A stretch of DNA of 64,000 nt, taken from positions 761,696 through 825,695 of the forward strand of contig BOKR01000001.1 in the NCBI GenBank assembly GCA_016861085.1. Reading direction: 5' to 3'. Shown here piece after piece: positions 35,403 to 44,587 of the stretch. This stretch comes from Patescibacteria group bacterium. GTDB lineage: Bacteria; Patescibacteriota; Microgenomatia; UBA1400; PJMF01. The notes beneath the pieces were generated by a model. It had not been told where the DNA came from. It searched no databases and saw nothing but the letters and a program-made list of their open reading frames with translations. Numbering within the stretch: the first letter of the stretch is position 1; every line of letters begins with the position of its first letter. Made by a program: the position numbers and the translations under genes.

Positions 35403-35717
35403 CTCCCCGAGTAGGATTCGAACCTACAACCTGCCGGTTACATATAACCCATCTATTTCTAGACGGTATGGACTATCTCATTACCATATTCACCATTTGG
35501 CAAAATTAGGCACTGGGTACTCTAGGGTGTACTCACCTAGTCTCTGAACCTTCTTCGTAATATCTTACAAAGCTCGGCTGCGGATTACCATATTCTTGTA
35601 AAAAACAAAAACACAGGCTTCCCGCAATTCACCCAGTTATCATTCCAAAGTTTCCTTTGGAAGCTGCGATTTTGGAATGTTTCACAGCCGGACGCTCTGC
35701 CATTGAGCTATCGGGGA
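35403..35717 (-). tRNA. tRNA-Asn(GUU) interrupted by a group I intron
   Basis: Exons (34 + 38 nt) splice to UCCCCGAUAGCUCAAUGGCAGAGCGUCCGGCUGU|UAACCGGCAGGUUGUAGGUUCGAAUCCUACUCGGGGAG. Cloverleaf with anticodon loop CUGUUAA, U1-A72 and G73 as in E. coli tRNA-Asn. CCA is not encoded. Confidence 0.75.
35441..35683 (-). ncRNA. group I (IC3-like) self-splicing intron in the tRNA-Asn anticodon loop (between nt 35 and 36)
   Basis: 243 nt. The 5' exon ends in U. P1: exon GGCUGU pairs with the internal guide GCAGCU. P2 hairpin UUCCAAAG-GAAA-CUUUGGAA. Conserved CCGCAGCCGAGC and GGUUCAGAGACUA (P7 region). The intron ends in G before UAACC. Confidence 0.7.
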
Positions 35718-35862
35718 TCTTCACTTGTTAATCGTTGCCAAGAAAATTCGCTGCAAATAAAATAGCTTTCATCTGCAATACAAAAATACTCAACAACAGA
35801 ACCATATTGTAACAAACCCACCTCTAAAAATCCACCATAAAGATAGTGTTACAATAATACTC

Positions 35863-36646
35863 ATGTCCCAAAAATTTGCCAACATCTCCGTCGTCTTCCC
35901 CGCACTTAACGAAGAAAAAAATATTGCCAATTGTCTGAATGCCCTTTTGAATCAAAAAACCAAACCCAAACAAATTATTTTTGTAAACCACAACTCTACA
36001 GATAAAACCCTCGAAATCGCAAACACCTACAAGCCAATTTTCAAACAGCAAAATATAGAATACATCGTCCACACAGAAAAAAAGAAAGGAATTGCCAACG
36101 CCCGCAACTCCGGCTTTGCACTTGCCACTCAACCGATTATTGCCTCAACCGATTCTGATTGTATTCCCCAAAAAAATTGGATTGAAAGCATTGCTACATA
36201 CTTCAAAAAAAAATGATGTCGTTGCCTGTGCAGGAAAAATTGTGCACTACGATGCTGATCCCCTTTGGAAAGAAATGACAAAAAATGGTTCTTATAACGT
36301 ACTTTATAAATTCCTGTACCTCATCAATGGCTTTCACCCCATGACAACAGCTAACTGCGCGGTTTTAAAATCTGCATTTGAAACAGTCGGCAGATTTGAC
36401 CACCAAATTATCTCCATTGACGGCCTTGATGATATTGACCTCGCCGCCCGCTTATCTTTTGTTGGCAAAGTTAAATACAATAAAAACATGGTCGTTGAAA
36501 GTTCGTTTCGAAGATACAACGGTTTTTCAAAAGCAATTGGCAGTACCTATAGAAGATTTTTAGCACTGCTTCGTGTCAAAAGAAAATTTAGAAAAAAACA
36601 ACTAGACGTACTATACGAAAATTTGTTTCCCAAAAAAAGTAGCTAG
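35863..36646 (+). pseudogene. family 2 glycosyltransferase interrupted by a frameshift in an A9 homopolymer
   Basis: ORFs 35863-36216 and 36092-36646 are both GT2-like (VVFPALNEEKNIANCLNALLNQ...; ...DVVACAGKIVHYD...). A9 tract at 36205-36213. With 8 A the frame reads YFKKNDVVACAGKIVHYD continuously. Confidence 0.7.
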
Positions 36647-36657
36647 TCAAAGTAGAA

Positions 36658-37950
36658 TTAATCCAAGAAATCCTGCAATTTTTTGCGTCTACTTGGATGC
36701 TTTAATTTTCGTAAAGCCTTAGCCTCAATTTGACGAATACGCTCACGGGTCACACCAAATTTTTTGCCGACTTCTTCTAAAGTCATCATTTTATTGTCGT
36801 TCAAACCAAATCGCATTCGGAGTACCTTTGCCTCACGGTCAGAAAGTGCACTGAGCACTTCTTCTACATTTTCACGAAGCATCTGTTGACTGGTGGCTTC
36901 ATATGGAGACAGCTGTTGGTCATCAGAAATAAAATCACCCAACACACTGTCGTCATCACCGTCACCAACTGGGGACTCAAGCGAAGTTGTGTTTTGTGAA
37001 ATCTTGAGAATTTCGCGGACTTTGTCTGGGTCCATCTCCATTTCAACACCAATTTCTTCTGGTGTTGGCTCTCTGCCCAAATCTTGCATCAGCCTTCGGC
37101 TGGTACGCATCAATTTGTTGATGGTTTCAACCATGTGCACTGGAATACGAATAGTTCTGGCTTGGTCTGCAATAGAACGAGTAATTGCTTGGCGAATCCA
37201 CCATGTCGCGTAAGTAGAAAACTTGAATCCTTTGGTCCAGTCAAATTTTTCGACTGCACGGATCAGACCTTTGTTACCCTCTTGGATCAAATCCAAGAAA
37301 GTCATGCCACGACCAATATATTTTTTAGCGATAGAAACAACCAAACGCAAATTAGCGTCTGTTAATTGTTTTTTAGCCTCAATGTCGCCTGCTTCAACTC
37401 TTTGAGCCAAACGAATTTCGTCTTCACGATTTAACAGTGGAATTCTGCCAATTTCCTTGAGGTACATGCGCACTGGATCAGCAACGCTGCGATCAGTCAA
37501 CGTAGATAATGTTTCAAGTTCTTGGGTTAAAGTATCGTCAGAATCTTTTTTCTTTTCGTCAGTTACAGATTCAAAAACATCGATATCATGGGCAATTATT
37601 TGGCCGTAAAAATCGTCAAGCTCTTGGATGTAGTCTTCTGGCTCAACAAATGTTGCTAAAATATCATCTTGAGTGATATAACCCTGAGACTTTGCTTTTG
37701 CAAACAAATTTTCAATGTCAGTAGAAAGTGCTTTTGGAACTTTGCTAGCAGATACCTGTTCTTCAAATTGAATTTCAGAAGGTGCTTCCTGCTGTGTTCC
37801 TTCTGCTACTTCATCGCCTGTCTGCTCAACAATTTCTTGTTGGGCCTCTTCAAGCATATCAAGTTGTGCTTCCGCCTCTTTGATCTCTTCTAATTCTGAT
37901 TTTTTGACTTTTGGGGTCAGTTTTTTTGGAGCTTTTTTCGCTGTAGGCAT
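36658..37950 (-). CDS. rpoD: RNA polymerase sigma-70 factor
   Basis: Regions 1.2, 2 ([18 protein letters not shown]), 3 and 4 ([28 protein letters not shown]). Confidence 0.95.
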
Positions 37951-42739: not shown

Positions 42740-44587
42740 TTAGCCAAGTTTCTCTTTTGCATTCAAATCTGCAAGTGCTCTGAGCAACTCATCGTGCTCT
42801 GCTTGTTCTGCTTGGGTGAGATGTTGTTTTTCATCTAAGACTGAGATTGCATCAATCAATGTTTTTTTCTCATCTACAATTGTAAGTTTTTTGAGTTTTT
42901 TGATGCTCCCAAGCCATTCAGTTTGTAAGTCAATCTCTTCTATACCGGAAATAAATTCTTGGTTGGCATGTATTTCAAATAGAGTTTCTTGAATATCAGC
43001 TGGAAGTGACGCAGCAAACTTTTTAAGCTCAAATACACCTTGATGCTCGTCTAGAGCTCTCAGAATTTGTTTTAATCCAGGAGTTACAAACACAATCTCA
43101 TTGCTATGCAAACTACGCACGTGTTCAAAAATTTGCGTATTTTCAGTTTGAAACAACAAAAACATAACGTACTTTTCTAGCCGTTCTCTAGCTGTTTCTT
43201 TCTGCGGAGTTTGAGCAGTTTTTGGCTCGGTTGCGGTCGTATTTGTCGTACTCATTTTAGAACTTGCGTTAACCCCACCAATCCTTTTTTTATTCTTAAA
43301 TTGTGCAATATCCGCCTTGACACTCTCTAGTTTTACACCCAATTTTTCTGCAATTTCGCGGCTATAATGTTCAAGTTCAACTGCATGTTCAATTTCTGAT
43401 AGCACAGGCAGCAATTCGCGCATTATTGCTTTCTTGCCCTCTGGTGTTTCATGGTTATGTTGTTGAAACGCCACTTTAATCAAAAATTCATGTGCAGTGA
43501 CTGATTGTTTTACAGCCTCACGCCATAGTTTTGGATCTGTTTTGATTAATTCATCAGGGTCTTTACCACCTGGAATAATAATGACTCGCAATTCAAGTTC
43601 GGTTAATTTGAGCGCATCAATAGCTTTTTTTGTAGCCGCCACACCTGCACTATCAGTGTCAAGCGAAAGTAACACTTTTGTAACCGTTCTTTCTAACAGT
43701 TTAGCGTGATCTTGCGTCAGGGCTGAACCTTTAATAGCCACAATCGAATTCATGTGGGCTTGCGTTGAAGAAACCACATCAAATTCACCCTCAACAACGA
43801 CAACAAATCCTGCCTTGCGAATTTCTTGGTAAAGTTCAGAAAACCCAAAGAGCATTTTGCTTTTGTGATACAACATTGTTTCTGGAGAGTTAATGTACTT
43901 AGCATCTTTTTCATCTCCAAGAATTTTTCGACCAGAAAATCCGACCACTCTACCTCTGTGATCTTTGAGAGGAAAAATGATTCGGCCGCGAAACCGGTCA
44001 TAGTATTTACCGTTTCTGCCTTGAATGATCAAACCTGCTTGTTCTAACAACAGCAAACTGTATTTTTTCTTCTTATGTAAAAAGGTAAGCAAGCCTTCCC
44101 ATTGGTCAAGAGCATAGCCCATTTGGAACAAGTTGATAGATTCTTTAGTAACTCTTCGCTCTTTGAGATATTCACGGGCTACTTCTCCTGCTTTATGTTC
44201 TGTCAATAAATAGTGATAGTACTGCTTTGCTAGGCTTAACACCTCTAGAATCTGCTCACGAACGGTATCGTCTTTTGATTTTGTGAATTTTTGCAGTGTA
44301 ATTCCAGCCCGATTTGCAAGTTCTTCTAAAGCCTCGCTAAAGCTCATGCCCTCATATTTTTCTAAAAAAGTAATAACATCACCTGACTCACCACAACCAA
44401 AACATTTGTAACGCTGGAGTGCGTCGTCGACAAAAAAAGAAGGACTTCTCTCTGAATGAAATGGACAATTGGCTTTAAAATATTTTCCTGATCGCTGCAA
44501 ACTCACCTTGGCACCGATGACAGAAACAATATCAGTTGCTTCCTTGACCTCTTGTACTTGCGACATAATTACCCTAATTTTAACCAA
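42740..44587 (-). CDS. dnaG: DNA primase
   Basis: Zinc ribbon CPFHSERSPSF...CFGCGESGD. TOPRIM EGEFD...DTD. C-terminal helical domain. Confidence 0.9.
   Translation of the reverse strand: MVKIRVIMSQVQEVKEATDIVSVIGAKVSLQRSGKYFKANCPFHSERSPSFFVDDALQRYKCFGCGESGDVITFLEKYEGMSFSEALEELANRAGITLQKFTKSKDDTVREQILEVLSLAKQYYHYLLTEHKAGEVAREYLKERRVTKESINLFQMGYALDQWEGLLTFLHKKKKYSLLLLEQAGLIIQGRNGKYYDRFRGRIIFPLKDHRGRVVGFSGRKILGDEKDAKYINSPETMLYHKSKMLFGFSELYQEIRKAGFVVVVEGEFDVVSSTQAHMNSIVAIKGSALTQDHAKLLERTVTKVLLSLDTDSAGVAATKKAIDALKLTELELRVIIIPGGKDPDELIKTDPKLWREAVKQSVTAHEFLIKVAFQQHNHETPEGKKAIMRELLPVLSEIEHAVELEHYSREIAEKLGVKLESVKADIAQFKNKKRIGGVNASSKMSTTNTTATEPKTAQTPQKETARERLEKYVMFLLFQTENTQIFEHVRSLHSNEIVFVTPGLKQILRALDEHQGVFELKKFAASLPADIQETLFEIHANQEFISGIEEIDLQTEWLGSIKKLKKLTIVDEKKTLIDAISVLDEKQHLTQAEQAEHDELLRALADLNAKEKLG

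Follow-up and report, generated by a model that had tools for sequence, protein, structure and literature searches.

The tRNA-Asn locus and its intron

The minus strand of a 64-kb stretch of DNA (the window, numbered from its first letter) carries a tRNA-Asn(GUU) gene that is divided within the anticodon, between U35 and U36, by a group I intron. Introns at this site of tRNA-Asn(GUU) were described by Nakagawa, Amikura, Omae and Suzuki in 15 of 95 complete Patescibacteria genomes (mSystems, January 2026, PMC13011429; preprint July 2025, 10.1101/2025.07.03.662931). The 5′ exon (35717..35684, minus strand) comprises 34 nucleotides and covers tRNA positions 1–35, position 17 being absent; it was delimited from the sequence and by ARAGORN in intron mode. 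Its 3′ end reads ...GGCUGU (...GUCCGGCUGU), and the last base, U35, contributes the U to the U•G wobble at the splice site. The intron (35683..35441, minus strand) measures 243 nucleotides, is without an open reading frame (ORF) and was placed by a match to the RNA family RF00028, the ARAGORN boundaries and the family alignment. It begins at G35683 with GAAAC (GAAACAUUCC) and ends in UAUAUG (GGGUUAUAUG), the last base being the omega-G at 35441. The 3′ exon (35440..35403, minus strand, 38 nucleotides), which covers tRNA positions 36–73, was assigned from the sequence and from its match to uninterrupted tRNA-Asn genes. It starts with UAACCGG (UAACCGGCAGG) and ends in UCGGGGAG with the discriminator G73. 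The CCA end is not encoded in the gene, the bases after G73 being CAC.

Once joined, the exons form a 72-nt cloverleaf with U1-A72, G73 and the anticodon loop CUGUUAA, as described by an earlier annotation of this DNA made from its sequence (the original prediction). Once introns are permitted, ARAGORN calls tRNA-Asn(gtt), split by 243 nt at precisely the boundaries given above, for the genomic as for the in-silico spliced sequence. In its default mode, the same program finds two tRNA-Ser genes only in the 64-kb window and misses the split tRNA-Asn. No second tRNA-Asn gene was seen within the window. The sole flaw in the cloverleaf is a U27:C43 mismatch (35692 / 35433) which tops the anticodon stem. 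Since over 100 natural tRNA-Asn genes that have this anticodon arm but no intron show the same mismatch, it looks like a feature of such genes and not like damage; other 27:43 mismatches are found across the intron-bearing tRNA-Asn family. The 22-nt spliced junction CGTCCGGCTGTTAACCGGCAGG is present uninterrupted in more than 120 metagenome contigs. ARAGORN was run on the 120 junction contigs retrieved and called an intron-less tRNA-Asn(gtt) in 114 of them and another isotype in none, the remainder being cut by contig ends. The complete 315-nt gene recurs identically in three independent assemblies (L001–L003, Logan read-archive run assemblies), which hold the only exact copies found.

The RF00028 (Intron_gpI) covariance model matches 35693..35449(-) over model positions 1–253 of 253, with 79.8 bits (E=1.2e-18) against a gathering score of 50 bits. 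It is the sole non-tRNA RNA family detected in the window. The intron fold was drawn by hand, on one of the sequences later aligned. Every helix of the window intron pairs and no core element is missing; all elements lie on the minus strand. In P1, exon residues G30–U35 and intron residues G1,A2 (35689..35682) pair with the internal guide UCGCAGCU (35669..35662) across a 12-nt loop. The guide GCAGCU thereby faces the exon GGCUGU, and U35•G lies at the splice site. P2 is a GAAA-capped hairpin, UCCAAAG-GAAA-CUUUGGA (35661..35644). P3 (ACUGGGU/ACCCAGU, 35637..35631 with 35518..35512) was assigned by fold and covariation. P4 (UGCGGG/UCCGCA, 35626..35621 with 35584..35579) encloses an extended, U-rich P5 (35617..35588), which is taken from the fold. 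P6 (GCC/GGU) together with P6a (CUUUGUAA-GAUA-UUACGAAG) occupies 35578..35548 and is again based on fold and covariation.

P7, which is the guanosine-binding site of group I introns, is formed by GACUA/UAGUC (35542..35538 with 35475..35471), as seen in the fold and the RF00028 match. A P7.1-like hairpin, GGUG-AGUA-CACC (35537..35526), is located between P7 and the 3′ strand of P3 (P3′) and was recognized when the sequence was set beside reference introns, two of type IC3 and four from Patescibacteria. The gap from GACUA to ACCCAGU consists of this 12-nt hairpin and a 7-nt linker. Fold and covariation further define the P8 stem-loop (35511..35483) and the P9 hairpin CCGUCUA-GAAA-UAGAUGG (35466..35449). 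After P9, an 8-nt tail, GUUAUAUG, ends in omega-G 35441, directly before UAACC. No ORF was found in the intron, its longest stop-free stretch being 47 codons on the antisense strand.

The pairing of the exon-end U with a G of the guide, the GAAA-capped P2, the terminal G before UAACC and the lack of a homing-endonuclease ORF had all been pointed out in the original prediction, and each is found as described. Another of its statements needs correction: the motifs CCGCAGCCGAGC and GGUUCAGAGACUA, said to occur also in the Azoarcus and Anabaena introns, are absent as exact strings from the tRNA-Leu intron of Nostoc/Anabaena PCC 7120, where CCUGAGCCAAGC and GGUGCAGAGACUC take the equivalent positions. 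The label ‘P7/J6-7’ attached to these motifs fits GGUUCAGAGACUA, whereas CCGCAGCC consists of the 3′ strand of P4 and its continuation into P6 (P4′/P6).

Homologous introns and endonuclease genes

Homologues were retrieved with the 20-mer AGAGACTAGGTGAGTACACC, which spans P7 and the adjoining hairpin. The scan covered one genome per species in 185,579 species and returned 54 loci. All 46 loci with both boundaries placed (46/46) show the same arrangement: a tRNA-Asn 5′ half ending in CUGU, an intron ending in G, and UAA followed by the tRNA-Asn 3′ half. In the other eight, the boundaries lie beyond the contig end or the pattern is unmatched. An alignment of 33 sequences was built with MAFFT from the window intron, 30 short-intron loci and two published introns. 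L018 and L035 were left out, the 5′ boundary set for them falling within HNH ORFs. With MAFFT and pair counting, the distal parts of P5, P6a and P8 are imperfectly aligned.

The proposed helices are well supported by this family. Standard pairs occupy 90.0% of 2,066 cells, against 34–46% when the 3′ partners are slid by 1–3 columns. Changes on both sides are seen in 40 of the 66 pairs, and the covariation score of 0.438 compares with 0.138 for shuffled alignments, a level that none of 500 shuffles attained. All sequences (33/33) have the U•G at the splice site, and at the 3′ junction UG followed by UAA is likewise invariant in 33. Base 1 of the intron varies in concert with the nucleotide just 5′ of GCAGC (G-C 11, U-A 6, A-U 5, C-G 1), and the 5′ splice site is thereby fixed behind U35. 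Among the individual helices, P2 shows changes on both sides in all seven pairs with 93.9% of cells paired, P6a in all eight, and P9 is compensatory in six of seven pairs (93.3% paired). P3 has compensatory changes in three of seven pairs, with 84% paired. P4 switches en bloc between GCGGG/CCGCA and CAGGG/CCUGA, with CG 17 / GC 16 and AU 17 / CG 16 at two pairs. P8 changes on both sides in 9/9 pairs, but only 70.8% of its cells are paired and its distal alignment is poor. Sixty-one columns of the family alignment are invariant, including the U•G, P7 and omega-G, and all of them are kept in the window.

The window gene itself is not among the 185,579 species representatives. Its best match there is L048, with 77% identity over tRNA and intron. 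The most similar intron cores are those of L053 (76%) and L034 (74%), and these loci differ from the closest relatives by RpoD, L022 and L036. Introns and RpoD proteins diverge in parallel over 13 loci (Mantel Spearman r=0.735, 0/2,000 permutations), which indicates that the intron has descended mainly vertically; occasional transfer is possible.

Considerably shorter versions of the tRNA-Asn 35/36 intron, with 173–191 nucleotides, are found at L015:31-220(-), L037:5387-5577(+), L012:2275-2470(-), L030:2021-2220(+), L040:34-235(-), L014:1191-1393(-), L056:385-591(-) and L025:1192-1399(+). They start with CUGU followed by GUUAGCAGC and retain P2, P3, P4, a short P5, P6, P7, P7.1 and P8. Since they end 6–9 nucleotides past P7′ (...GAGAUAGUCCAAAGAG before UAAC), they are without the P9 hairpin. 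The shortest has 173 nucleotides, against a minimum of 184 in PMC13011429, and these versions are candidates for splicing.

At the other extreme, relatives of 501–558 nucleotides (L016:1275-1849(+), L007:4858-5426(+), L055:82-627(-), L032:882-1399(-) and L033:6877-7416(+)) carry an ORF in the P1 loop which runs into the guide GCAGC. The L016 ORF passes the Pfam HNH model (PF01844) with 24.2 bits against a threshold of 21.4, whereas the L033 ORF (78 aa) looks frameshifted. L016 is close to the window organism: the two RpoD proteins are 82% identical and the anticodon stem is the same. Since L016 bears an HNH gene and the closely related window organism has a copy without a homing-endonuclease gene (HEG), the endonuclease appears to have been gained or lost recently in this group. 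Together, the HEG-less window copy and its HNH-bearing relatives look like a series of endonuclease gain, decay and loss. The window copy is not independently mobile because it has no HEG; its HNH-bearing relatives may show the route by which the lineage spread.

Splicing and alternative readings

The most plausible explanation, to which we assign a probability of about 90%, is that the locus is a tRNA-Asn(GUU) gene of a Microgenomatia-like, Patescibacteria-type host, cut between U35 and U36 by an IA-like group I ribozyme. The division of this gene at 35/36 by a 243-nt group I intron was the core of the original prediction; the RF00028 match, the intron-mode ARAGORN call, the covariation in 33 sequences and the genes with an uninterrupted junction all agree with it. 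The chemistry of group I splicing is well established for the family. In the proposed mechanism, the gene would be transcribed as a 315-nt precursor, in which G30–U35 of the 5′ exon would pair with the guide GCAGCU to form P1, with U35 in a U•G wobble. Free guanosine or GTP, held in P7, would then attack after U35. Subsequently, G35441 would take the same site and the freed 3′-OH of U35 would attack after G35441. U35 would thereby be joined to U36 and the intron released, the product being an ordinary 72-nt tRNA-Asn with the loop CUGUUAA, reading ...GGCUGUUAACCGG... We infer that the window copy splices in this way and that its gene presumably is the organism's only tRNA-Asn gene.

Several points limit this explanation. 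The 20-nt motif used to select the homologues covers P7 and P7.1; both helices are accordingly invariant in 33/33 sequences and uninformative on covariation. By eye, no convincing P10 can be formed between UAACC of the 3′ exon and the bases 5′ of the guide (...AAAAUC). Across the family, the base opposite U36 in the would-be P10 varies with the first intron base, and P10 is therefore not general in this family. The support for splicing of the window copy comes from the sequence and from a homologue. Only 64 kb of the genome are visible, so a second intact tRNA-Asn gene could be located elsewhere. Lastly, the titles of the closest loci (‘Pseudomonadales’) contradict the proposed host phylum.

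As an alternative, the intron might be a dead relic within a tRNA pseudogene, with another tRNA-Asn at work elsewhere in the genome. The limited view of the genome and the absence of a homing endonuclease from this copy are compatible with such a relic. However, the core elements are intact and the 61 family-invariant positions kept, all helices pair, the cloverleaf is perfect apart from the 27:43 mismatch that natural genes share, and the gene is identical in the three independent assemblies. Moreover, intron-bearing and intron-less copies of one anticodon rarely occur in one genome (PMC13011429). We consider a relic very unlikely. A different question is raised by the splice boundaries. With GU closing the 5′ exon and UG closing the intron, both boundaries can be shifted upstream by two bases, and the gene could then be read as tRNA-Thr(UGU) split at 33/34 (exon ...GGCU, intron GU...UAUA, exon UGUAACC). 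ARAGORN calls Thr(UGU) with a 33/34 intron for about 17 homologous loci, tFind often does likewise, and the ambiguity is noted in PMC13011429. For the window gene, ARAGORN gives Asn 35/36 and not Thr. Natural tRNA-Asn genes contain the Asn junction without interruption, and U1-A72 with G73 would, by the E. coli identity rules, suit Asn and not Thr. The threonine boundary was rejected since the intron would end in A instead of G and U33 would be placed in a U-A pair instead of U•G. The in vitro product of a homologue, furthermore, was sequenced and has the 35/36 junction (PMC13011429), and we leave this reading next to no chance.

It could also be argued that the intron belongs to the classical IC3 lineage, represented by the Azoarcus tRNA-Ile and Anabaena tRNA-Leu introns, and has moved to a new tRNA and position. 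The core motifs around P4′/P6 and J6/7-P7 do resemble those of IC3 introns, and global identity does not discriminate: it is 63–72% to two IC3 introns and 67–71% to Patescibacteria introns, hence not clearly lower. Alignment scores separate the groups, with 114–119 to the two IC3 introns against 185–198 to three Patescibacteria Asn introns. In both IC3 references (Nostoc tRNA-Leu and Acidobacteriota tRNA-Ile2), P7 (GAGACUC/U) runs straight into P3′ without the 12-nt hairpin of the window intron. Of the four published 35/36 introns from Patescibacteria in the comparison, three have such a hairpin, and the one from tRNA-Asp has no comparable insert. Of 28 introns at 35/36, 25 were assigned to subgroup IA by the published study, which placed none of the tRNA introns from Patescibacteria in IC (PMC13011429). 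The exact motifs on which the original prediction based its comparison are absent from the Nostoc intron, and the special likeness to the Azoarcus and Anabaena introns is reduced to what all group I cores share. We regard membership of the IC3 lineage as most improbable.

An IA-like tRNA-Asn ribozyme missed by default tRNA finders has practical consequences. A genome may be scored as lacking tRNA-Asn and its completeness underestimated, a point also made in PMC13011429. The 54 species-level loci retrieved with one 20-nt motif alone show that, among draft genomes of Patescibacteria, the class extends far beyond the 15 cases known from complete ones. The HNH-bearing, HEG-less and very short forms lend themselves to studies of how homing endonucleases are gained and lost and of how small a group I ribozyme can be. 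It is also conceivable that a HEG-less intron is kept in the sole tRNA-Asn gene, and fixed beside rpoD over class-level time, because it is useful. If so, guanosine-dependent splicing could couple the tRNA-Asn supply and translation to the GTP/energy state in a cell having lost most protein regulators; RNA-level control is raised as an idea in PMC13011429. We regard such a use as improbable: co-divergence (r=0.735) and conserved synteny are equally expected if precise intron loss is impossible. The short P9-less versions, the endonuclease series and the apparently mislabelled metagenome-assembled genomes (MAGs) described below may merit more attention than the window gene itself.

Host, genomic setting and known tRNA introns

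The window has a G+C content of 36.9%. The rpoD gene (36658..37950, minus strand) encodes an RpoD of 430 aa which fits the 370-position short RpoD model end to end; of the proteobacterial model with its 631 positions, it matches no more than the C-terminal part. Searched by tblastn with the window proteins, rpoD adjoins the intron-bearing tRNA-Asn in about 30 of the 54 loci, and a 608-aa window protein (42740..44566) is matched in 16 of them. RpoD identity to the window protein amounts to 96% for L048, 82–85% for L016 and L013, 69–73% for Woesebacteria and Beckwithbacteria MAGs and 58–62% for Daviesbacteria and Shapirobacteria MAGs. The neighbourhood of rpoD and intron-bearing tRNA-Asn is common to the MAGs under all four names. 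Judging from RpoD similarity, synteny and MAG titles, the host would be of Patescibacteria type and nearest to Microgenomatia.

About 25 of the loci L004–L057, or about half of the 54, come from public MAGs whose titles read ‘uncultured Gammaproteobacteria’ or ‘Pseudomonadales’ (TPA_asm, SRP*_co*, binchicken), yet they carry the Patescibacteria-type tRNA-Asn intron. They include L048 (CAZUHV010000001.1), L016, L013, L018 and L049. In about 15 of these, rpoD lies beside the tRNA gene. The 10 with a whole rpoD inside encode an RpoD of 361–432 aa at a G+C content of 34–49%. The RpoD proteins of the loci so titled are 57–96% identical to that of the window, the same range as for Woese-, Beckwith- and Daviesbacteria MAGs. 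These titles are probably wrong.

A glycosyltransferase family 2 gene (35863..36646 (+)) lies between rpoD and the tRNA gene and is split in two overlapping ORFs of 117 aa (35863..36216) and 184 aa (36092..36646). In L002 and L003, which are otherwise identical, it is a single 260-aa gene. The split is a frameshift, which may reflect either a real pseudogene or an assembly error. A possible promoter, TTGGCA-17-TATTAT (35854..35882, minus strand), is proposed from its consensus match only and lies about 137 nucleotides upstream of the tRNA 5′ end. It is the only promoter-like site upstream on the tRNA strand and falls inside the start of the opposite-strand glycosyltransferase gene.

Classical IC3 tRNA introns resemble the window intron in being small, HEG-less and self-splicing, in their location in the anticodon loop, in building P1 from bases of the anticodon stem-loop and in similar P4/P6 and P7 motifs. 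They differ in the tRNA concerned and in the insertion site, which is 34/35 in the Anabaena/Nostoc tRNA-Leu(UAA) and 36/37 in the Azoarcus tRNA-Ile, as opposed to 35/36 in the window. In general, IC3 tRNA introns sit at 33/34 (fMet, Ile2), 34/35 (Leu) and 36/37 (Arg). A hairpin between P7 and P3′ reportedly marks subgroup IA in the Michel and Westhof classification. By this hairpin and the alignment scores, the window intron is likely to belong to IA.

The original prediction called the insertion of an intron at 35/36 of an Asn tRNA unusual. To the contrary, the class is already published and is the commonest Patescibacteria tRNA intron, accounting for 15 of the 22 intron-bearing tRNA genes in the 95 complete genomes (PMC13011429). 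The same authors report that standard tools miss or mis-call such genes, and they name Williams 2020 (10.1101/2020.01.27.920355) as the first to list the site, under the label ‘Asn.4Ug’. Their in vitro experiments with the tRNA-Asn intron of GCA_016700035.1 yielded ligated tRNA as well as linear and circular intron, and product sequencing put the excision precisely at 35/36. A mutant with omega-G changed to C was blocked in exon ligation and accumulated the intron-3′ exon intermediate (PMC13011429). The HNH genes found in four of the published Asn introns have their counterpart in the HEG-bearing relatives of the window intron, which carry an HNH gene as well. A further comparison is provided by the Patescibacteria tRNA-Asp(GUC) introns (PMC13011429), which occupy the same site after U35, in what is probably the same phylum, and were also spliced in vitro. 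They differ in the host tRNA, are shorter (184–256 nucleotides) and have a more divergent core, with an alignment score of 137.5 to the window intron.

With the published Patescibacteria Asn class, the window gene shares the tRNA, the insertion point, the U-1/omega-G boundaries, the junction of UG with UAA, the P7–P3′ hairpin and probably the kind of host. The intron aligns throughout with two published Asn members, with core blocks of 14 to 20 nucleotides in common; the blocks ggtgaattgcgggaagcct, atggtaatccgcagcc, aaggttcagagactag and gatgagatagtcc are shared with the GCA_016700035.1 intron. The nearest published example is that of the Microgenomatia genome GCA_016700135.1, which has the same acceptor stem UCCCCGA, the intron start GAAAG.UCGCAGC and an identical AGAGACUAGGUGAGUACACC. 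This intron has a second hairpin (UCCGCCAGUUGGCGGA) after P7.1, whereas the window has P7.1 only. The extended, U-rich P5 also sets the window intron apart from the class. Its sequence differs from all 15 published examples, the nearest being about 71% identical where the two align. Class, insertion site and self-splicing are all on record, and the window gene is a new sequence of this experimentally validated kind, probably in the kind of host expected for it.

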